Source of the DNA: Candidatus Tremblayella phenacoccinincola
GTDB taxonomy: Bacteria; Pseudomonadota; Gammaproteobacteria; Burkholderiales; Burkholderiaceae
Assembly: GCF_009805595.3 (NCBI RefSeq)
Contig: NZ_VMQO03000002.1
Coordinates: 31,039 to 63,038 of the forward strand
Direction: 5' to 3'
DNA: 32,000 nt
Position 1 is the first letter of the stretch. Each line of letters starts with the position of its first letter. The notes beneath the pieces were generated by a model, which saw nothing but the letters and a program-made list of their open reading frames with translations, searched no databases and had not been told where the DNA came from. Below are positions 647 through 13,012 of the stretch, piece by piece. Both the position numbers and the translations under genes were made by a program.

Positions 647-721
647 AGCGGAGTGGAGCAGTTTTGGTAGCTCATCGGGCTCATAACCCGAAGGTCGTTG
701 GTTCAACTCCAACCTCCGCAA
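647..721 (+). tRNA. metY: Initiator tRNA-fMet(CAU), no encoded CCA
   Basis: Almost colinear with E. coli tRNA-fMet. A1 x A72 mismatch at the acceptor end and an A11:T24 pair. Anticodon arm TCGGG-CTCATAA-CCCGA has three consecutive G:C pairs (initiator signature). Anticodon CAT at 682-684. T arm GTTGG-TTCAACT-CCAAC. Confidence 0.9.
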
Positions 722-975
722 CTACAGCTAACTTCCCTTCCTAGCTAGGAGCTCTTGGTTTATTAGGAGAAGGTAGGAGAGGAGAGAGTTAACAGCTATA
801 GCTATTAAAGAGCTTCTCTCTCCCCTCTCTTATATATACTTCTACTTCTAACTAACCTTCTCCTCTTCTCTCCTTTCCCTTTCCTTATTCTTATCCACCT
901 TTCTCCTCTCCTTTCTCCCCCCAGGCTTCCCCCTCAACACATCCAAACATTCCTCTCCTTTCATACCGCTAACTA
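722..975. repeat. C/T-rich spacer repeat module A (GA/CT hairpin, AAAGAGCT, TATATATAC, CTAACTAAC, long polypyrimidine tract)
   Basis: GA arm 775-788 pairs with CT arm 816-830. The loop holds the palindrome AGCTATAGCT (794-803). AAAGAGCT is at 807-814, TATATATAC at 831-839 and CTAACTAAC at 848-856. Positions 841-960 are 54 C and 2 G out of 120 nt by hand count. CCCCCCAG is at 917-924 and CAACACATC at 935-943. The same anchors occur in spacers B and C. Confidence 0.75.
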
Positions 976-1053: not shown

Positions 1054-1188
1054 TTCTAGAAGGCTAGGTATTTAGAACGCAATAAGCCTTTTGTCTTTAT
1101 TACTGAACATATAGAAAGTAACCAACCTTTTGTTTCTATTGGATCTGTATCTTTTGAGGCTATATAGCTATGGTTTAAGGACATATTA

Positions 1189-1200
1189 GCTTTAGGTTTA
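1189..1200 (+). repeat. Spacer motif GCTTTAGGTTTA, copy 1
   Basis: Exact 12-mer repeated at 4789-4800. A 10/12 copy, GCTTTAGGTT, lies at 7498-7507. Confidence 0.6.
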
Positions 1201-1239
1201 TTTAGCATATAATATAATAACTATTAACTAAACTGCACT

Positions 1240-1244
1240 AAGGA
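1240..1244 (+). promoter_or_regulatory. Possible Shine-Dalgarno (AAGGA) for pnp
   Basis: AAGGA lies 7 nt upstream of the TTG start at 1252. Confidence 0.4.
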
Positions 1245-1251
1245 TATTATA

Positions 1252-3366
1252 TTGTTAAACCCAACAAAACATAGCTTTAAATATGGTAAACATACTGTAA
1301 CTATCGAAACCGGTGTAATAGCTAGACAGGCAGATACTTCAGCATTAGTTAATATGAACGAAACAATCGTTTTAGTAACTGCTGTATATTCTAAACAAAT
1401 AAAGCAACCTCAGGCTCTCTTTCCTTTAACTGTGAACTATCAAGAGCGAACATATGCAGCTGGTCGTATTCCAAGTGGTTTTTATAGAAGAGAAGGACGT
1501 CCTAGTGAATCTGAAATACTAATATCTCGCTTAATAGATAGACCTATTCGTCCTTTATTTCCAGATAGCTTCCTAAATGAAGTTCAAATATTTGCTACAG
1601 TATTATCTTTAAACCCTCAAGTTACTACTGATATAGTATCTTTAATAGGTGTGTCAGTAGTTCTTAGCTTATCAGAACTTCCATTTAATGGACCATTTGG
1701 AGTTGCAAGAGTTTGCTATGTTAATGACAAATATCTATTAAGTTCTGATATTACTGGCCAAACAGCAAGCAGCTTAGACTTAATAGTTGTTGGTAGTTCT
1801 AATTCAATACTTATGGTCGAATCTCAAACAAAGCTTTTAAATGAACAACAAGTACTAGAGGCTATTCTATTTGGTTACAAAGAACAGCAAAAAGTAGTTA
1901 ATAATATTAACGAACTAACTAAAAGACCATGTAATAAAAGCTGTATTCATAAAAACTATAGTTCTAATATAGAATACATATTCCTAAAAGCTAAAGTAAC
2001 AAAACTAGCAGAACCTCGCATATTTGAAGCTTATCAAAATACAAACAAGAAGGAACGCTTTTCTTCAATAGAACTAATTAAGCTTGATATCTTAAATAGT
2101 ATAACTGACTCTAGAATACCTAGTATAATTCTTAGCTTAGAAAGGAATATTATGAGTAGCTATCTCTTAAAAAAAGGAATACGTATTGACGGTCGTAATA
2201 AAAAAGCTATTCGTAATTTAAACATTCGTATTGGCTTTTTACCTAGGACGCATGGATCTGCTTTATTTACTAGAGGAGAGACTCAAGCTTTAGTTACCGT
2301 TACTTTAGGGAATCAACGAAATGCTCAAAATGTAGACGAACTAAAAGGCGAACGCATAGATCGATTTCTTTTTCATTATAACTTTCCTCCGTTTTGTGTT
2401 GGAGAAGTTGGCATAATTGGTAGTCCAAAACGACGTGAGGTTGGTCATGGTTGGTTGGCAAAAAGGAGCTTACTACCTATTATACCTGAAGACAACATAT
2501 TTCCATATACAGTTAGAATTGTATCAGAAATAACTGAGTCTAATGGGTCTTCTTCTATGGCTTCAGTATGCGGAGCATCCTTAGCTTTAATGGACGCAGG
2601 GGTTCCTATATGTTTTCCAATAGCTGGTATTTCTATAGGTCTAATAAAAGAAACCAATAACTATTTATTACTCTCCGATATTATAGGTGATGAAGACCAT
2701 TTAGGAGATATGGACTTAAAAGCTTCAGGTACAAAGGCTGGTATGACTGCTATTCAAATGGATATAAAAATACAAGAGCCTGTATATAAAACCATTATAG
2801 ACCTAGCCTTAAAACAAGCTAGATCTTCTATATATTTTATATTAGACATAATGAACAAATCTATTAGCTCTTCTAGAAAAACTATAGGTAAATATGCTCC
2901 AAAGTTATACACAATCAATATAAGTCCTGATAAAATTAAAAGTGTTGTTGGAAAAGGAGGTTCAATAATAAAGTCTTTAATAGAAGAAACTAATACTAAT
3001 ATAGATATTTCAGATGCTGGCATGATTACTATATACTCTTCTAATGATAATATGGCGAACATTGCCTTAAATAAAATAAAAGAAATTACTTCTGATATCA
3101 AAATAGGAAACACCTACTCAAGTAAAGTTATTCGTATTGTCGAGTTCGGAGTTTATGTTATATATTGTGGTTATAAAGAAGGTTTAGTTCATATTTCACA
3201 TATAGCTAATAGATATATATCTAAGGTTTCTGATCATTTAACCATAGGCCAAGAAGTACTAGTTAAAGTTCTAGACATAGATCGTTTTGGCAAAGTAAAG
3301 CTAAGCATAAAAGAAGCAAGTAACCCTGCAATAAGTAACATTTCTAATAAGCTTAAGCCTAAATGA
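1252..3366 (+). CDS. pnp: Polyribonucleotide nucleotidyltransferase (PNPase), TTG start
   Basis: 704-aa ORF. The N-terminus MLNPTKHSFKYGKHTVTIETG and the motif LTVNYQERTYAAGRIPSGFYRREGRPSE are colinear with E. coli PNPase. Two RNase PH-like halves are followed by KH (VVGKGGSIIKSLIEETN) and S1 (VEFGVYV...GLVHISHIA) regions. E. coli pnp also uses a UUG start. Confidence 0.95.
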   Translation: MLNPTKHSFKYGKHTVTIETGVIARQADTSALVNMNETIVLVTAVYSKQIKQPQALFPLTVNYQERTYAAGRIPSGFYRREGRPSESEILISRLIDRPIRPLFPDSFLNEVQIFATVLSLNPQVTTDIVSLIGVSVVLSLSELPFNGPFGVARVCYVNDKYLLSSDITGQTASSLDLIVVGSSNSILMVESQTKLLNEQQVLEAILFGYKEQQKVVNNINELTKRPCNKSCIHKNYSSNIEYIFLKAKVTKLAEPRIFEAYQNTNKKERFSSIELIKLDILNSITDSRIPSIILSLERNIMSSYLLKKGIRIDGRNKKAIRNLNIRIGFLPRTHGSALFTRGETQALVTVTLGNQRNAQNVDELKGERIDRFLFHYNFPPFCVGEVGIIGSPKRREVGHGWLAKRSLLPIIPEDNIFPYTVRIVSEITESNGSSSMASVCGASLALMDAGVPICFPIAGISIGLIKETNNYLLLSDIIGDEDHLGDMDLKASGTKAGMTAIQMDIKIQEPVYKTIIDLALKQARSSIYFILDIMNKSISSSRKTIGKYAPKLYTINISPDKIKSVVGKGGSIIKSLIEETNTNIDISDAGMITIYSSNDNMANIALNKIKEITSDIKIGNTYSSKVIRIVEFGVYVIYCGYKEGLVHISHIANRYISKVSDHLTIGQEVLVKVLDIDRFGKVKLSIKEASNPAISNISNKLKPK

Positions 3367-3371
3367 CGTTA

Positions 3372-3501
3372 CAATAGGGGTTTCCTCAGAGTCTACCGAA
3401 GTGGCGAAATGGGTAAACGCAGTTAACTCAAAGCTAACCACCTTGTAGGTTTATCGGTTCAAATCCGATCTTCGGTAGTTCTTAACATACACCCCCTATT
3501 G
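3372..3501. repeat. 9-bp perfect inverted repeat bracketing tRNA-Leu(CAA)
   Basis: CAATAGGGG (3372-3380) is the exact reverse complement of CCCCTATTG (3493-3501). The arms lie 14 nt upstream of the tRNA 5' end and 15 nt downstream of its 3' end. Confidence 0.7.
3395..3477 (+). tRNA. tRNA-Leu(CAA), class II, no encoded CCA
   Basis: Acceptor ACCGAAG/CTTCGGT. D arm GCGA-AATGGGTAA-ACGC. Anticodon arm GTTAA-CTCAAAG-CTAAC, anticodon CAA at 3429-3431, with an A31 x C39 mismatch. Long variable arm. T arm ATCGG-TTCAAAT-CCGAT. Discriminator A3477. Confidence 0.85.
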
Positions 3502-3564
3502 AATATACAATTGCTGTTAAATATAAAGACATTATAGAGAATACAAAAGCGAATAAACTCTCCT

Positions 3565-4146
3565 ATGAAATATAACATACTTCCTAAAAGCTACAATAAA
3601 GTTCATATCATTGGTGGAAAGCTTAAAAAAGCTAAACTAAATATAAGCAATGACTACAACTTAAGACCTACTTCTAATAGAGTTAGAAAAGCTATTTTTA
3701 GTTGGTTAGATCCCTTAGCAAAAGGTTATTATTGTTTAGACTGCTTTGCTGGAAGTGGTGTTTTAGGAATAGAAGCTATCTCAAGATATTCGTTAAATGT
3801 TACATTCTTGGAAATAAACAATAACTTCTTCAATAGTTTGATAAAAAACATAAATAGGCTAAAGCTAAATAATATAAGCTTAGTTAATATAAATGCTTTA
3901 GAATGGTTAAATAATATTAACAAACCTAAACCTTTTGATCTAGTTTTCATTGATCCTCCATTTTTCAGAGGAATGATAGCTAAAACCATAAACCTACTAG
4001 AAAGCCTTAATTACTTATCTCATAAGTCTATAATATACATAGAGTCTGAAATAGGTCAATCAAACTATAAAGTTCCCAAAAGCTGGTTAATATACAAAGC
4101 TAAAGACTCAAATAATCTATCATATAAACTGTATATAAGAAGCTAA
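3565..4146 (+). CDS. rsmD: 16S rRNA m2G966 methyltransferase RsmD
   Basis: 193 aa. The motifs LRPTSNRVRKAIFSWL, CLDCFAGSGVLGIEAISRY, VFIDPPFFRGMIAKTINLLE and IIYIESE are colinear with E. coli RsmD as I recall it. Confidence 0.85.
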   Translation: MKYNILPKSYNKVHIIGGKLKKAKLNISNDYNLRPTSNRVRKAIFSWLDPLAKGYYCLDCFAGSGVLGIEAISRYSLNVTFLEINNNFFNSLIKNINRLKLNNISLVNINALEWLNNINKPKPFDLVFIDPPFFRGMIAKTINLLESLNYLSHKSIIYIESEIGQSNYKVPKSWLIYKAKDSNNLSYKLYIRS

Positions 4147-4173
4147 GGCTCCCGCATTCTGCTAGATTAGTGA

Positions 4174-4686
4174 CTACATTAAACAGCTAGTCTTATTCAA
4201 TATTATATTATAGGGTTTTTTATTAACGTTAATTATCTTATTAAGCACCTTAAGATACAGCTTATTTCTTTCTTTTATTACAGAATCTAATATCTTATAT
4301 AGGCTTATCCTAATAACTAATGTTAAAGGTCTTTGTTTAGCTACTACCCTTTTAGATTGTTCTTTAATACCTATCTTAACCCATAAGACAATATTAGAAT
4401 CTAATAGGCTCTTACATATATCTATATGGACAACAGATCCACCTCCAGTAGCTAATATAATGTTAGTTTTTATTAGCATAGTTCCAATTAGGCTTTCTTC
4501 TTTTATTCTAAATGATAGTTCTCCCTCTAAATAATAAGTTAAGTCAATAGATGCTTTATATTTAGCTTCTACTTTTATATCTGAATCAATATAAAACAGG
4601 TTTAGATGTCTAGCTAAGAAGTTACCTATCGTAGTTTTTCCAGAACCCATTAAACCTACTAAAGCTATGCTTATTATTTCTTTCAT
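4174..4686 (-). CDS. aroK: Shikimate kinase
   Basis: 170 aa. Contains the P-loop LVGLMGSGKTTIGNFLA, the DSD motif (YIDSDIKVE) and ILATGGGSV, the typical AroK layout. Confidence 0.85.
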   Translation of the reverse strand: MKEIISIALVGLMGSGKTTIGNFLARHLNLFYIDSDIKVEAKYKASIDLTYYLEGELSFRIKEESLIGTMLIKTNIILATGGGSVVHIDICKSLLDSNIVLWVKIGIKEQSKRVVAKQRPLTLVIRISLYKILDSVIKERNKLYLKVLNKIINVNKKPYNIILNKTSCLM

Positions 4687-4788
4687 TTAGCTATATAGTG
4701 TTTATCTAATAAAGAAGTCTAAAAGAGCTAAAGAAGCTAGTATTTAGGAACATTCTAGGTTTAACTACTAGCTACTCTACTTTTAAAT

Positions 4789-4823
4789 GCTTTAGGTTTA
4801 GGTGAAGAGGAGAGGGAGAGTTA
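4789..4823. repeat. GCTTTAGGTTTA copy 2 followed by an inverted-orientation GA tract abutting the tsaB stop
   Basis: The 12-mer at 4789-4800 equals 1189-1200. GGTGAAGAGGAGAGGGAGAG (4801-4820) is the purine-strand version of the C/T modules. GAGAGTTA also occurs at 784-791. Confidence 0.6.
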
Positions 4824-5549
4824 GGGCCCTTTGTTCTTTGAGGTTAAAATATAACTAATACAATATTCCTTCCTATAGATATCAAATACGTATTTTGGAG
4901 AAACTTGCTCAGATGATAGCTTTTCACCTTTGATAGCTTTATGAATACCTATTGGTAACATACTTTTAGCTGTTAATAATATGGGCTTTTTTATAGTTAT
5001 AGTTCTTAGTTCAAGGTTATCATCCAAATAAAACAATAAGTCAATATTACTAACTATTACATATTCTTTATATTGTTCTAGTTCTATAGATAGTTTCTTA
5101 AAGATGAGTCTAAGTCTATTTGGGTTAGTTCTTCTAAACCAGGTTATTAAACCAATATTGGGTTTATGGTAGTTTGTTAGATATGCTTCTTCATTAGCTT
5201 TTATAACTAATAGTATTTTGGGTTTAACAGAGAACCAGGGTTGAACAACAGCTTCTAATGTAGATATGTTAACTAAGGGTAGGTTTGTATAGATAGATAA
5301 GCCTTGAGATAAAGATATTCCTATCCGTATGCCAGTGTAGCTACCATAATTATTACTAAAAGAAAGGTATTTAATATCAGTTAATGAAAGGCCTACTTCT
5401 AACAAAGCGCTATCTATAATAGGTATAGCTAAATGAGGTTGTTTATATGGGGCTTTTGATAGGTATTCACTAATTATAACATTATTAATGGATAATGCGA
5501 CAGAACAGAATATATTAGTTGTGTTAATAGCTAATAGACGTATATGCAA
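4821..5549 (-). CDS. tsaB: tRNA t6A37 biosynthesis protein TsaB (YeaZ)
   Basis: 242 aa. The N-terminal half LAINTT...CSVAL...GLSLTDIKYLSFSNNYGSYTGIRIGISLSQGLS matches the TsaB motif of E. coli (SLTDI...GPGSFTGVRIGIGIAQGLA). Confidence 0.8.
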   Translation of the reverse strand: MHIRLLAINTTNIFCSVALSINNVIISEYLSKAPYKQPHLAIPIIDSALLEVGLSLTDIKYLSFSNNYGSYTGIRIGISLSQGLSIYTNLPLVNISTLEAVVQPWFSVKPKILLVIKANEEAYLTNYHKPNIGLITWFRRTNPNRLRLIFKKLSIELEQYKEYVIVSNIDLLFYLDDNLELRTITIKKPILLTAKSMLPIGIHKAIKGEKLSSEQVSPKYVFDIYRKEYCISYILTSKNKGP

Positions 5550-5635
5550 GGGAGAAGAACCGTAAATACAGTTAAGTTAGTAGTTGGTTCTTGGTTCTGC
5601 TAATACTTTAGTATATGGTTTAGGTTAGACATAAG

Positions 5636-5880
5636 CTTTCCCCCCAGTTAAGACCAACACATCATAACACAGATTCAAAGAGCTATCCTCTCCTTCCCCC
5701 ATATATACCTACCGCATCTGTCTCATACTCTGGTTTTAATCCTTCAACAGCTTATTGATTAACCGGACAACCAGTAGGTCTTTCCCCCTTTCTAGTTCAT
5801 ATTATTAACACTTCCTCCTTCTCCTTAAACACTAACTAACCCCCTCCCCCCCCCTTCCTTCCTTTCCTTTAGTCTCAACC
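5636..5880. repeat. C/T-rich spacer repeat module B (overlaps the rpsU 3' end)
   Basis: CCCCCCAG at 5640-5647, CAACACATC at 5655-5663, AAAGAGCT at 5677-5684, ATATATAC at 5701-5708 and CTAACTAAC at 5832-5840. The C5-T-C9 run is at 5840-5854 and is followed by a CT tract. The order and spacing of AAAGAGCT to ATATATAC (24 nt) match module A (25 nt). Confidence 0.75.
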
Positions 5881-6059
5881 ACCCTCCTGAAATACTTCTT
5901 TGCTGATGATGCTTTCTTTCTTTTCCGTTCAGAGGTTGGCTTTTCATAAAATAACCTAGAACGCACTTCACTTAGTAAACCGCTACGCTCAACCATCCTC
6001 TTGAACCGACGTATGGCTATTTCAAATGGTTCGGCTTCTTTAATAAAAACAATACACAT
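5832..6059 (-). CDS. rpsU: 30S ribosomal protein S21 with a low-complexity C-terminal tail
   Basis: 75 aa. [41 protein letters not shown] is the conserved S21 core. The last ~12 aa ([12 protein letters not shown]) are read from the polypurine repeat. Confidence 0.9.
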
Positions 6060-6063
6060 AAAT

Positions 6064-6069
6064 TCTCCT
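6064..6069 (-). promoter_or_regulatory. Shine-Dalgarno AGGAGA for rpsU
   Basis: The minus strand reads AGGAGA-ATTT-ATG, with the ATG at 6059-6057. Confidence 0.5.
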
Positions 6070-6164
6070 ATACTATACGGGGGTTCATGTTGATATCTTT
6101 ATTTAAATACAGCTATTGGTAACAGGTAATTCTTGGTAAGATGAAGCTGTTGAACCGACAAATA

Positions 6165-6335
6165 AGACAAGAGAACCTCTCCTTCCTTCTCTTTAAGTTC
6201 TAACTAAGAACTCCCCCTCTCAACACTCTCTCCTCTCTCCCTTCCTTTTTCCTATCTCTATATATACCTCTCAAACGTACCTCCACATCATTCCTCCTCC
6301 TCCTCCCCCCCCCTACCCCCAAACGCTAGAAGACC
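6165..6335. repeat. C/T-rich spacer repeat module C
   Basis: CTAACTAAG at 6200-6208, CCCCCTCTCAACAC at 6213-6226, TATATATAC at 6259-6267, (CCT)4 at 6293-6304 and C9-TA-C5 at 6305-6320. Positions 6171-6330 are 71 C and 7 G out of 160 nt by hand count. Confidence 0.75.
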
Positions 6336-6397
6336 CATAATATCTTATCCTCACTACCATTCAAGCCTTCAAGTAACAACCTAAACCTAGGAACAAC

Positions 6398-7492
6398 TTA
6401 GGAACAACAAACCCCAACACTTCGACTTGTCAATAAAAGCTTTTCCAATGAAGAAGCGCTCATTGTTAATATTAATGCTTGTCCTAAGTCTTTAACTAAA
6501 ACAATGTTGCAGGAACGCACCAAAGAGTTAGTATTCTTCTTATCAACACTAATAGTTTTTAGGTAAGTCTCTACTTTCAACCCACTAGGCACAGATATAG
6601 GCAAACGACAGATGGATAACAAACGTATCAACCTACGCTGAACACTTAAATCAATTAACCCTAATCTAAAAGAGATGTCAGAAGCAATCACCATTCCACA
6701 GCTAACTGCCTCTCCATGTAACCACTTTTGATACGAAAGGTAAGATTCTATTGCATGTCCAAAAGTATGTCCAAAGTTTAAAACAGAACGCACACCAGCT
6801 TCTCGAGAATCTGTTGCTGTTACGTTTAACTTAAGCAAGCAAGCATGTTTAATCATGCTTATTACAACACTCAGTTTACGCTTCAATATCTTAAACATCA
6901 TTTTCTCAAGCCATTTAAAAAAGTCCCCATCAAGCGCAACACTTATCTTAATAATCTCTGACAAGCCTGAGTGCCATTCTCGTTGAGATAAAGAGCTTAG
7001 GTTCGAAATATCTAATATTACTCTGTCTGGCAAATGTATTGTCCCAACAAGGTTCTTTCCAAGTGCGGTGTTCAGTCCATTCTTTCCTCCAAAAGCTGAG
7101 TCTACTTGAGCTAAAAGAGTTGTTGGGATGTGTATTAATTTAACACTTCGCATATAGCAGGATGCAATAAACCCCGAAATGTCACCAACCACTCCACCTC
7201 CAAAAGAAGCAACCTTCGAGTCTCTGCTTAGTTCCTCATACAAAAGAACTTTGAGTATACCGATGAAAAACCTTAACCGCTTATAACGTTCTCCAATTCC
7301 AATAATGACCTTTGTTACTTTAAGACTATTCTTATTTCTTTTGAAGCTTCGTAATCGCTTGAGCCTACATAAACTAGCAACTGAACTATTAGTGATTAGC
7401 ACCAAGCTCTTGATGTTTTCATACGCTATAAAATCCCAATGCTTCTGAGACTGCATGCCTACATATCGAATGTTTCTTTTAGAAAAGCTCAT
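6398..7492 (-). CDS. aroB: 3-dehydroquinate synthase
   Basis: 364 aa. Contains FGGGVVGDISGFIA, IHIPTTLLAQVDSAFGGKNGLN, GKNLVGT and NFGHTFGHAIE...WLHGEAVSCGM, the AroB nucleotide- and metal-binding motifs. Confidence 0.9.
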   Translation of the reverse strand: MSFSKRNIRYVGMQSQKHWDFIAYENIKSLVLITNSSVASLCRLKRLRSFKRNKNSLKVTKVIIGIGERYKRLRFFIGILKVLLYEELSRDSKVASFGGGVVGDISGFIASCYMRSVKLIHIPTTLLAQVDSAFGGKNGLNTALGKNLVGTIHLPDRVILDISNLSSLSQREWHSGLSEIIKISVALDGDFFKWLEKMMFKILKRKLSVVISMIKHACLLKLNVTATDSREAGVRSVLNFGHTFGHAIESYLSYQKWLHGEAVSCGMVIASDISFRLGLIDLSVQRRLIRLLSICRLPISVPSGLKVETYLKTISVDKKNTNSLVRSCNIVLVKDLGQALILTMSASSLEKLLLTSRSVGVCCS

Positions 7493-9686: not shown

Positions 9687-10040
9687 TTAGTTGTTGGATG
9701 TTTTGCTTTTCTTTCTAGTCTTGGCATTTGTTCTCGTTCTTTGTCCTCTAGTTGGGAGCTTCTTCCTATGACGTATGCCTCTGTAGCAGCTAATGTTAAC
9801 TAGCCGCTTAATGTTTAAAGATACCAAACGTTTAAGATCACCTTCTACTAAAAGTTTGTTCACTGCTTCTTTTAGATCCACCAGCTTACTTTCGCTTAAG
9901 CTAGATATTTTGCAGTTAGGATCAATGCCAGTGACAGAACAGACTCTTCTCGATAAGCTTCTTCCAATACCATATATATATGTTAGGCCAACCTCTACAG
10001 ATTTGTTACTTGGTATGTTAACTCCAATAAGCCTAGCCAC
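9687..10040 (-). CDS. rpsM: 30S ribosomal protein S13
   Basis: 117 aa. [10 protein letters not shown]...[12 protein letters not shown]...[25 protein letters not shown]. Confidence 0.95.
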
Positions 10041-10157
10041 TTATCCCTGCCTCTGTTTATGCTTTGGGTTAGAACTACATAAAACCCTAACAACACCTTT
10101 TCTCCTTACCACTCTACACAGCTTACATATTACTTTAACTGATGCTGACACTTTCAT
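10041..10157 (-). CDS. rpmJ: 50S ribosomal protein L36 (absent from the supplied ORF track)
   Basis: Hand translation of the minus strand from the ATG at 10157 gives [38 protein letters not shown], then TAA at 10043-10041. This has the canonical L36 length, the C-x2-C ... C pattern and the NPKHKQRQG tail. It sits between infA and rpsM as expected. Confidence 0.9.
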
Positions 10158-10380
10158 GGTTAGGTTTAGTTCTGAATATTATTCTAGCTCTCAAAGGGTC
10201 ATACGGACTAACCTCAACAGTCACCATATCTCCAGGTAAGATCTTAATAAAATGTATCCTCATCTTTCCAGAAACGTAAGCTAAAACCACATGACTATTC
10301 TCCAACCTAACTCTGAAGTTGGTGTTTGAAAGGTTTTCGATCACTTCTCCGTGCATCTGAACATGTTTGGTTTTTGGCAT
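10135..10380 (-). CDS. infA: Translation initiation factor IF-1
   Basis: 81 aa. [53 protein letters not shown] matches IF-1. An ~11-aa C-terminal extension overlaps the rpmJ start by 23 nt. Confidence 0.92.
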
Positions 10381-10394
10381 ACACTCCTCATATA

Positions 10395-11543
10395 TTAACA
10401 GGTTTTAAAGAACTTGTTGAAACGTATGAAGTTAGCATAGAACTTCAATTGTTCTGTTAGAACCAAAGTTGTAGTTATTAGGGAAATAGACGTGAACTCA
10501 TTTAGTACAAGGACCTGCTTAGTAAATAAAGATAATAGTCTAATAACAGCACAACCTAAAACTATACACAGAGACTTAGTAATGATTAATTCCCTAAATA
10601 AATAGTTTAAGCGTTCCTTAGTATTTAACCCAGGTCTAAGACTATCAATAAACGTTGCACTTCTTTTCATGTATCTTGAAACATTGTTAGCCTTCACATC
10701 CCATCTTGTGAATATAACGCAAAAGTAGAACATTAAACTAACATGGAACAAGACCTCACAGACTGCCTCAATGGCTTTAATAAGTTCCTGAATGCACAAC
10801 CATTTATAAAGCGGAACACAAGCTACACATATCTTCTCAAAGAAGTTAACCTGAAGTGTTGACGTAACACAGGCTAGTGTTAAAGGAAAAAGGATTACTG
10901 GAACCAAACTAACAGAAAAGCAAGAGGAGTATATTCTGTCAGTCTTTTGACACCAGAATGTTAGTCTTTGTGATGCAAGCTCTGTTAAAACGCTAAAGTA
11001 AAACAGCAGGCTAAGGTCAGTTAGTAACAAGAAGCTAGGGGTTGGGGTCTTATCAATGGTTGTTTTCAGTATAAGCAACAACCTAGGAACATATGTTAAT
11101 AGCCTAAACAGAATAATTAAAGAAGCTCCACTACCAATGCCAGACATGCTTATATGCTCAGTCAACCACATTAGAACCATTGAACCAACCGTTAACAAAC
11201 CCACTAAACCCACAATGCCCACATATGGGTATCCAAATAAGGGTGTGAAATAATGCATACTAACTGCAGACTCAATAGATGTGAAAAGTAGTGTTAGTAG
11301 CCTAGCTAGCAATATATAAACGCTAGTTAGTAAAGAGGTTTCAGGGTTTGGCTTTAACAAGAATGTTAAAAAGACTTTCATAAGCAACTGCAAAGTCATT
11401 AACGGTGTTAACCTGATTGAGCTGGAATGTGCTTCTTTTGAAGGATAGCTTAGGGGAATGGGTATGTACATAATTAAGCGGCATATGAAAAGCATAACGA
11501 ATGTTTTAAGAAGACGTTTCATCGAGTAATTACTGTAGTTCAT
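10395..11543 (-). CDS. secY: Preprotein translocase SecY, shortened and highly divergent
   Basis: 382 aa and multi-pass hydrophobic. [27 protein letters not shown] resembles E. coli [44 protein letters not shown] resembles VPGIRPGEQTAKYI. The rplO-secY-infA position is syntenic. Confidence 0.75.
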
Positions 11544-12624: not shown

Positions 12625-12650
12625 TATGTATATTGTCTATGTATATTGTC
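12625..12650. repeat. Perfect 13-nt tandem duplication (TATGTATATTGTC x2)
   Basis: 12625-12637 equals 12638-12650. It lies in the 48-nt rplR-rpsE spacer, and its last base is part of the rplR stop codon. Confidence 0.85.
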
Positions 12651-13012
12651 TAAAACTGAAGACCATAGCACCTTGCTGACTCGGCCATGCTCTGTATTAA
12701 GCCATGGTATTGAAACCCAGATCTATCGAAAACAACCTTATTAACGCCAATGGAAACAGACTTTACAGCTATTAGTTTACCTATCAATGAGGCACCAAAC
12801 TTGTTCTTTCTTAGTCTGAAGTCTATATATTTGAATGTTGCTATAGTAGAAACACCAGTAACTATGTGATTACCTTCTTCTGAAATGACATACGCATAAA
12901 GATGTGTATTTGTTTTATATACTACCAACCTAAATAAGCCTATCTTTTTAAGCTTAGCTCTTGTTCTTTTAGCTTTTGTTTTTACTAGCCTCTTTACGTT
13001 TAAGTGCTTCAT
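12650..13012 (-). CDS. rplR: 50S ribosomal protein L18
   Basis: 120 aa. RLVVYKTNTHLYAYVISEEGNHIV...FDRSGFQYHGLIQSMAESARCYGLQF. Confidence 0.92.
   Translation of the reverse strand: MKHLNVKRLVKTKAKRTRAKLKKIGLFRLVVYKTNTHLYAYVISEEGNHIVTGVSTIATFKYIDFRLRKNKFGASLIGKLIAVKSVSIGVNKVVFDRSGFQYHGLIQSMAESARCYGLQF

Follow-up and report, generated by a model that had tools for sequence, protein, structure and literature searches.

The genome of Tremblaya phenacola PPER, one of the closest described systems, is reportedly bounded by repeats and present in multiple arrangements. Here we analyzed a stretch of 32,000 nucleotides (nt) of Candidatus Tremblayella phenacoccinincola (contig NZ_VMQO03000002.1, positions 31,039 to 63,038 of the forward strand; hereafter the window), which is AT-rich and gene-dense, with the focus on two of its intergenic spacers, A between tRNA-Met and pnp and B between tsaB and rpsU. 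The T. phenacola chimeras PPER (Gil et al. 2018, summarised in PMC6463088 and PMC5664097) and PSOL (PMC11014885) belong to the same group and have the same beta/gamma mosaic as the window, with the tsaB|rpsU joint present in both. The original prediction had presented spacer B as a rearranged paralogue of spacer A, that is, as a dispersed repeat that can mediate recombination between two compositional blocks or was left by it. PPER differs from the window in this respect, since the orthologue of B, rpsU and spacer C (between rpsU and aroB) is there a 745-nt exact repeat heading contigs 1 and 19, whereas A and B of the window share only words of 8-10 nt, in lineage-specific C/T filler.

Candidatus Portiera aleyrodidarum is reportedly expanded and rich in repeats and microsatellites in its intergenic regions. 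Like the window, the Portiera of Bemisia and Singhiella represents a tiny obligate insect symbiont in which the spacers grew in one lineage and not in its sister, with low-complexity and tandem filling confined to non-coding DNA and gene ends, and with a reduced DNA-repair set (PMC7821994). The Portiera spacers are AT-rich microsatellites, however, while the tracts of the window are homopyrimidine C/T and richer in G+C than the surrounding genes. Plant mitochondrial genomes also resemble the window in that scrambled short shared patches occupy the spacers of a recombination-shaped, fused genome, and short dispersed repeats and “filler DNA” are said to occur at their rearrangement junctions. 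The mitochondrial repeats that give isomers are usually at least 50 nt long and near-identical, and there are none such here. The Tremblaya authors themselves liken the genome to plant mitochondria (PMC6463088). Finally, the C/T tracts of the window (25-85 nt, at least 88% pyrimidine on the plus strand, about 3-11% G) look like H-DNA or triplex-prone tracts, with local mirror symmetry as in TCCTTTCCCTTTCCT, a likeness that is compositional only.

We found that the resemblance between A and B is slightly above chance, is not specific to this pair and is nowhere near a paralogous alignment. The spacer features on which this comparison bears are the following (window coordinates):

723-1251, spacer A, 529 nt, between tRNA-Met and pnp
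762-792, plus strand, purine (GA) tract directly after tRNA-Met
805-970, plus strand, C/T-rich low-complexity core of A, 81% pyrimidine and 3% G, holding all A modules of the original prediction
1162-1251, plus strand, conserved 90 nt upstream of pnp, 89-93% identical to 121-210 of the PPER contig 22 sequence and outside the C/T filler
4687-4820, aroK-tsaB spacer, 134 nt here and 15 nt in PPER, with TAAAGAAGC three times
5550-5831, spacer B proper, between tsaB and rpsU
5597-5682, ancestral conserved core of B, with CCCCAGTTAAGACCAACACATCATAACACAGA at 5642-5673 (97% identical to PPER) and AAAGAG
5684-5728, plus strand, insertion 1 (TATCCTCTCCTTCCCCCATATATACCTACCGC...), present here and absent in PPER, corresponding to the first and second predicted B modules
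5751-5820, second conserved block of B, which in PPER takes in the original rpsU stop region
5821-5884, plus strand, insertion 2 (C/T tract, CTAACTAAC, C/T tract), absent in PPER, corresponding to the third predicted B module
6060-6397, spacer C, between rpsU and aroB, of which 6074-6165 (the rpsU upstream region) is conserved with PPER
6171-6330, lineage-specific C/T-rich stretch within spacer C, sharing the word set of A and B

The words pointed out by the original prediction are indeed where it had placed them, in an order that differs between A and B. The exact words common to A and B are AAAGAGCT (807 in A and 5677 in B), ATATATAC (832 and 5701), CTAACTAACC (848 and 5832), TCCCCCCAG (916 and 5639), CAACACATC (935 and 5655) and TCCTCTCCTT (904 and 951 in A, 5686 in B); the A core also holds TATATATAC at 831 and CCCCCCAG at 917. 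However, the longest exact match between the spacers is 10 nt, and the best alignment is an ungapped one of 49-57 nt at about 72% identity (848-904 against 5832-5888), made up of CTAACTAACC and a C/T tract. With +2/-3 scoring, A against B reached 32 and A against the reversed, non-complemented B reached 33. With a composition-corrected log-odds matrix and shuffles keeping local composition, the best alignment had p = 0.025-0.04. By using blastn-short with E <= 1 over about 80 kb of window and PPER loci we obtained no A-B match, nor did we find significant gapped A-B homology or a long repeat anywhere in the 32-kb window. Thus, B does not qualify as a paralogue of A. A pairwise BLAST with +1/-1 scoring had given E about 2e-5 for the match of CTAACTAAC and its C/T tract; we did not rely on it because its statistics presuppose ordinary composition and low-complexity sequence had not been filtered out.

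The individual modules gave uneven results, all uncorrected for the way in which the original prediction had chosen its segments: p about 0.003 for 807-839 against 5677-5708, p about 0.08-0.12 for CCCCCCAG...CAACACATC, and p < 0.001 for the CTAACTAAC module. Against real-sequence decoys, the A-B word count stood at about the 98th percentile (p = 0.016). Per base, A has more such words in common with the 134-nt aroK-tsaB spacer than with B. In comparison with composition-matched shuffles, a weak excess stands for k-mers and for summed patches; the best alignment does only marginally better than the shuffles.

We compared 5550-6420 with the PPER orthologue by global affine alignment. First, insertion 1 consists of a C/T tract and ATATATACCTACCGC. 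Second, insertion 2 sits in what was the 3' end of rpsU, as it still is in PPER, and gives the gene a new stop (TAG, at 5832-5834, inside TTAGTTAG) and a predicted 18-residue tail; ribosomal protein S21 is predicted at 75 amino acids (aa) here against 60 aa in PPER. The tail is predicted to be encoded by the GA tract (C/T on the plus strand) at 5832-5885 of the minus strand; the end coordinate given by the original prediction, 5880, falls within the rpsU open reading frame (ORF), whose minus-strand end is at 5832. Third, only the CCCCAG...CAACACATC piece of B is ancestral, and its match to A is the weakest, not being significant when taken alone (p about 0.08-0.12). On the side of spacer A, the interior (723-1161) cannot be aligned with PPER, whether with the 229 nt after tRNA-Met on contig 2 or with the start of contig 22, and the only PPER matches of the region are the tRNA and the last 90 nt.

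None of the C/T modules of A, B and C is present in the PPER orthologues, nor are the aroK-tsaB expansion and a 13-nt duplication described below; homopurine and homopyrimidine tracts are far rarer there. Because of this absence, the C/T modules appear to post-date both the PSOL/PPER split and the genome fusion. In the comparison with the sister strain, which the original prediction had proposed, the joint and the B core are thus kept in PPER, and the C/T modules are not there.

We therefore consider it probable, with room for doubt, that A and B are unrelated, fast-evolving, low-complexity filler spacers produced by slippage or templated repair rather than a working repeat pair. The composition and distribution of the tracts are described by the following observations. 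Their building blocks are (CT)n, (CCT)n, C-runs, (TA)4 and (CTAA)2. TRF units in or beside the spacers are CTCTCTC (x5), TCC (x5), AACCTAGGAAC (x2.3) and TTGGTTC (x2.1), and TRF arrays lie at 4710-4739, 5584-5598, 6226-6258, 6292-6306, 6384-6408 and 12625-12652. Eight of the 13 purine/pyrimidine (R/Y) tracts are in spacers A, B and C and at the edge of the aroK-tsaB spacer, the other five being short Y tracts inside coding sequence. In spacer C the words are CCTCTCCTTCC (6176), TTCTAACTAA (6198), CTCAACAC (6219), TATATATACCT (6259) and a C-run (6302). The GA tract at 4800-4826 begins in the aroK-tsaB spacer and reaches 6 nt into the 3' end of tsaB. In the 48-nt rplR-rpsE gap, a perfect 13-nt tandem duplication (TATGTATATTGTC, x2.2) occupies 12625-12652; rplR and rpsE overlap in PPER and the duplication is absent there. 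It is direct evidence of recent slippage-type growth in the lineage of the window.

The orientation of the tracts bears on the level at which they arise. The long Y tracts of A, B and C are all on the plus strand, although pnp is read from the plus strand and rpsU and tsaB from the minus strand, and the cumulative GC skew keeps one sign across the whole window. Tracts on the plus strand whatever the transcription, together with a skew of one sign, argue for a process linked to replication and acting on DNA, and not for an RNA-level or promoter function.

According to the scenario that we favour, the loss of rimP-nusA-infB-rbfA-truB-rpsO between tRNA-Met and pnp would have left scar A, while gamma tsaB coming to abut beta rpsU would have made B. 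After the split from PPER, low-complexity DNA, homopyrimidine on the plus strand and built of micro-repeats such as (CT)n, (CCT)n, C-runs, (TA)n and (CTAA)2, would have been gained in A, B, C and the aroK-tsaB spacer, and on a small scale at rplR-rpsE. Its source may be slippage during replication together with the synthesis of short templated “filler” where forks stall or DNA breaks, so that similar micro-repeat words would arise independently at several sites and in scrambled order. Such words, diverged and exact over 10 nt at most, would be unfit as substrates of homologous recombination. The replication and repair genes listed for PSOL are ligA, dnaB, dnaE, dnaN and dnaQ only, without mutS, mutL or recA (PMC11014885 Table S5).

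Some observations weigh against this scenario and have to be set beside it. Purine-containing 8-mers, that is 8-mers not purely of C and T, are shared by A and B eight times against about 2.6 expected (p about 0.005-0.01). The three best non-overlapping A-B patches summed give p about 0.003, with the reversed control at the null level. All three spacers contain the 8-mers ATATATAC and CTAACTAA (p about 0.001-0.01). Moreover, the tracts of the three spacers lay out as a loose unit of about 100 nt, namely AAGAG, C/T tract, (TATATATAC), TTCTAACTAA, C/T tract, and this three-way unit fits copying as well as convergence. Other points concern the frame of the comparison. In content and in lineage specificity A and B agree with lineage-specific low-complexity spacer growth, except that dnaQ is retained: the instability of Portiera is tied to dnaQ loss, yet dnaQ is listed here, which makes the analogy incomplete. 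Only parsimony and the unusual tail of S21 favour an insertion here over a deletion in PPER. That recA and mutS/mutL are absent is taken from a single KEGG-based supplementary table (PMC11014885), and our spacer comparison covers 32 kb of a 221-kb genome.

These shared words open another explanation, the main rival, in which the C/T tracts of A, of B (two pieces) and of C go back to one short dispersed unit, about 100 nt long, and have since decayed, so that A and B would be true but very degenerate paralogues. The unit (AAGAG, C/T tract, TATATATAC, TTCTAACTAA, C/T tract) would have been pasted by templated repair or template switching and then have diverged by slippage. We consider both the common descent and this way of pasting possible, although rather unlikely. 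The patch sum with its null reversed control and the two purine-containing 8-mers common to the three spacers speak for it, as do the anchored 57-nt ungapped match at 72%, the common anchors in the three-way alignment, the same strand orientation of all copies and the absence of each of them from PPER. On the other hand, the longest exact match is 10 nt for A-B and 13 nt, a C-run, for B-C, and the best single alignment only reaches p about 0.04 after composition correction. A-C is not significant, and for B-C the reversed control scores almost as well as the true pairing. Moreover, the anchor words are micro-repeats, (TA)4 and (CTAA)2, that are within reach of independent slippage; A has more words per base in common with the aroK-tsaB spacer than with B; and there are neither terminal inverted repeats nor clear target duplications. 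A stronger form, in which the tracts are no random products of slippage but stem from a single degenerate “filler” unit, about 100 nt long, inserted repeatedly and always in the same replication orientation at former break or deletion sites, seems to us quite unlikely.

The genes and blocks around the spacers are:

535-619 and 647-722, plus strand, tRNA-Leu(GAG) and tRNA-Met(CAU), the leuU/metY equivalents and left border of spacer A (ARAGORN, Rfam, E. coli order)
1252-5549, gamma-derived block between A and B, corresponding to PPER contig 22
1252-3366, plus strand, pnp
3394-3478, tRNA-Leu(CAA)
3565-4146, plus strand, rsmD
4174-4686, minus strand, aroK
4821-5549, minus strand, tsaB
5832-6059, minus strand, rpsU (ribosomal protein S21), 75 aa, with the Pfam domain at residues 4-57
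6398-7492, minus strand, aroB (3-dehydroquinate synthase), labelled beta, 81% identical to PPER, followed by the ribosomal-protein/rpoBC superoperon

The complete order is rlmE (partial), tRNA-Leu(GAG), tRNA-Met, spacer A, pnp, tRNA-Leu(CAA), rsmD, aroK(-), tsaB(-), spacer B, rpsU(-), spacer C and aroB(-), after which the alpha/spc/S10/str/rpoBC superoperon runs on the minus strand to the end of the window; the identities of the genes flanking the spacers were confirmed by Pfam. Protein identity to PPER is 81% for aroB (contig 19), 78% for pnp and 76% for rlmE. The same order is found in PSOL, from the host Phenacoccus solenopsis, as peg121 pnp, 122 rsmD, 123 aroK, 124 tsaB, 125 rpsU and 126 aroB (PMC11014885 Tables S2, S5), and the window is almost certainly from this strain. 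Look-ups of the exact pnp and aroB proteins of the window gave no match. The PSOL genome is a beta/gamma chimera of 221 kb in seven contigs with 34.8% GC (Bai et al. 2024, PMC11014885).

The original prediction was right in placing B exactly at the boundary of two compositional blocks. GC content steps at B from 27.5-32.5% in the genes on the left to 35-38% in those on the right. On the left, the best relatives of pnp after PPER are Sodalis-allied (Sodalis, Moranella and Gullanella, 56-58% identity), the best relatives of rlmE are gamma symbionts, and the order rlmE/leuU/metY/pnp is that of E. coli rlmE-ftsH-folP-glmM-secG-leuU-...-metY-rimP-nusA-infB-rbfA-truB-rpsO-pnp minus the protein genes. 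On the right, the orders secY-infA-rpmJ and rplQ-aroB are non-enterobacterial, E. coli having secY-rpmJ and rplQ-yhdN. Published labels give aroK and pnp as gamma and the right block (rpsU, aroB and the ribosomal-protein superoperon) as beta, rpsU and aroB being beta in both PSOL and PPER (PMC11014885 Table S5). A protein search with rpsU returned neither a clear beta nor a clear gamma signal because the protein is short. Gene affinities on the two sides and the GC step therefore indicate that spacer B is the gamma|beta joint, tsaB|rpsU. Some genes of the beta-side operon carry the label “gamma” in PSOL (PMC11014885 Table S5). As regards the labels themselves, rpsC, rpsD and secY in the operon at 7635-31934 are “gamma” in PSOL, yet their PPER orthologues are “beta” or “unknown”, so that the labels are inconsistent (PMC11014885 Table S5). 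Gene order (secY-infA-rpmJ, with rpoBC adjoining rpsL) and a uniform GC of 38% suggest that this operon is of one, non-enterobacterial, origin.

The tsaB|rpsU joint is also present in PPER, where the final 343 nt of contig 22, on the tsaB side, match the beginnings of contigs 19 and 1, on the rpsU side, at 100%. Because it is common to PPER, the joint is ancestral and older than the PSOL/PPER split. Since the C/T modules appear younger than that split and the joint is older, the modules would be no footprint of the fusion, and the suggestion that they were left by recombination between the blocks does not hold.

The remaining part of that suggestion concerned recombination now. If A and B were an active pair of direct repeats, recombination would excise or reshuffle the 4.8-kb pnp-tsaB block and produce sub-genomic isomers. 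In PPER, pnp-rsmD-aroK-tsaB does form a separate 4.6-kb contig whose two ends lie within the counterparts of A and B, repeats are reported to favour the coexistence of several arrangements of the PPER genome (PMC6463088), and the seven contigs of the PSOL assembly were blamed on “repetitive sequences in the flanks” (PMC11014885). Nevertheless, we consider an active pair highly unlikely. The pnp-tsaB block was assembled contiguously through A and B here. RecA-type recombination requires a minimum of about 20-30 nt. The exact identity of A and B, at most 10 nt, is far under this need, and no recA is listed (PMC11014885 Table S5). The contig break on the B side of PPER is explained by the 745-nt exact repeat, which is unrelated to A, and the end of PPER contig 2 and the start of contig 22 have nothing in common with that repeat or with each other. 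With so short an exact match, no gapped homology and no long repeat in the 32 kb, A and B cannot be presented as a pair able to mediate recombination, and we infer that isomers through them are absent.

The 745-nt repeat of PPER is of another nature. Contigs 1 and 19 open with the same 745 nt at 100% identity, made up of about 180 nt, the core of B, rpsU and the entire spacer upstream of rpsU; beyond it, one contig runs into aroB and the other into leuC. The repeat lies at 9746-10490 of the contig sequence compared, the last 343 nt of contig 22 (4289-4631) overlap it, and we found no similarity between it and spacer A. In the window the locus is single-copy. This duplicate is a genuine repeat of the rearrangement type at the orthologous locus, distinct from A/B and of the sort to which the coexisting arrangements of PPER are attributed (PMC6463088), and it shows the neighbourhood to be rearrangement-prone in the clade. 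PPER tsaB was called at 196 aa (3617-4290 of the contig 22 sequence) against 242 aa here (4821-5549), and where the 745-nt repeat has its left edge, other sequence takes the place of the N-terminal coding part; because of this, tsaB may be truncated or dying in PPER.

We also considered whether the shared words could have a cis-acting function, as parts of promoters, terminators, leaders or small RNAs, and recur by selection and not by descent. Parts of the spacers are strongly conserved with PPER, at 97% for 5642-5673 and at about 90% for 1162-1251, and a 33-nt patch upstream of tsaB (5563-5595) resembles one upstream of rpsU (6104-6137). But the conserved parts differ from the shared C/T modules, and the modules are on the plus strand in all three spacers, so that the RNAs would be pyrimidine-rich for pnp and purine-rich for rpsU and tsaB. 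Promoter and terminator scans of A and B were at or below shuffle expectation, their single-strand folds were no better than those of shuffles, and Rfam at a permissive threshold gave no family match for either spacer. Selection for such elements is, in our view, scarcely credible as the origin of the words. As to mobile elements (insertion sequences, miniature inverted-repeat transposable elements or repetitive extragenic palindrome-like units), the spacers contain no ORF with a family match, no consistent unit ends and no Rfam match, and apart from the GA/CT tract pair at 762-837 they have no inverted repeat. This pair, the purine tract 762-792 and the pyrimidine tract 813-837, forms an imperfect inverted repeat with a fold z of -2.1, which is not compelling. 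Sub-threshold Rfam matches to MIR529 and the Hsp83 3' UTR (untranslated region) at 762-885 were rejected as spurious, for they reflect the hairpin-like GA/CT composition.

Because of the synteny with E. coli, spacer A reads as the deletion scar of gamma-derived rimP-nusA-infB-rbfA-truB-rpsO; tblastn of the E. coli proteins against it found no remnant of the six genes, and no pseudogene is detectable. The 90 nt upstream of pnp, at 89-93%, are better kept relative to PPER than the pnp protein (78%), and 1162-1251 probably represents the leader or promoter of pnp. The leader of E. coli pnp is targeted by RNase III as part of autoregulation. The conserved element CCCAGTTAAGACCAACACATCATAACACAGAT lies inside the gamma|beta joint, where its core at 5642-5673 has 97% identity with PPER; searches with the conserved part of B gave no Rfam match, no convincing promoter or fold and no match in the JGI metagenomes. 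About 90 nt upstream of rpsU are likewise conserved with PPER.

Additional observations concern the neighbouring spacers and a third genome. The aroK-tsaB spacer and spacer A (at 1189) have the 12-nt exact word GCTTTAGGTTTA in common. The tandem repeat of AACCTAGGAAC at 6384-6408 adjoins the stop codon of aroB, at the end of the C/T-rich spacer C. Finally, a 2045-nt Logan contig (SRR33549362) represents a third related genome with mnmG-rlmE, its rlmE being 72% identical to that of the window; it is possibly from a further chimeric Tremblaya lineage and usable as an outgroup.

Both the beta/gamma mosaic of T. phenacola and the rearrangements driven by its repeats have already been published, so that the block boundary is not new, and the locus adds one more case of a known kind, in a genome already described: the joint matches the T. 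phenacola chimeras and the filler matches a Portiera-type expansion. The likeness of A and B should not be taken for a recombination repeat; the true repeat of the locus is the 745-nt duplicate of PPER. A new, minor detail is that an insertion of filler changed the end of rpsU, an essential ribosomal protein gene. If a filler unit was indeed inserted repeatedly at sites of breakage, it would have entered the rimP-rpsO scar, the gamma|beta joint on either side of the conserved core, and spacer C, and one insertion would have rewritten the C-terminus of S21. The tracts would then point to places where double-strand breaks were repaired in a genome that lacks recA and, being triplex-prone, might seed further breakage. 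Together, these data suggest that the C/T-rich filler is younger than the genome fusion, and, should it be a copied unit, it would offer a glimpse of how broken DNA is mended in a bacterium that has lost nearly all of its repair genes.

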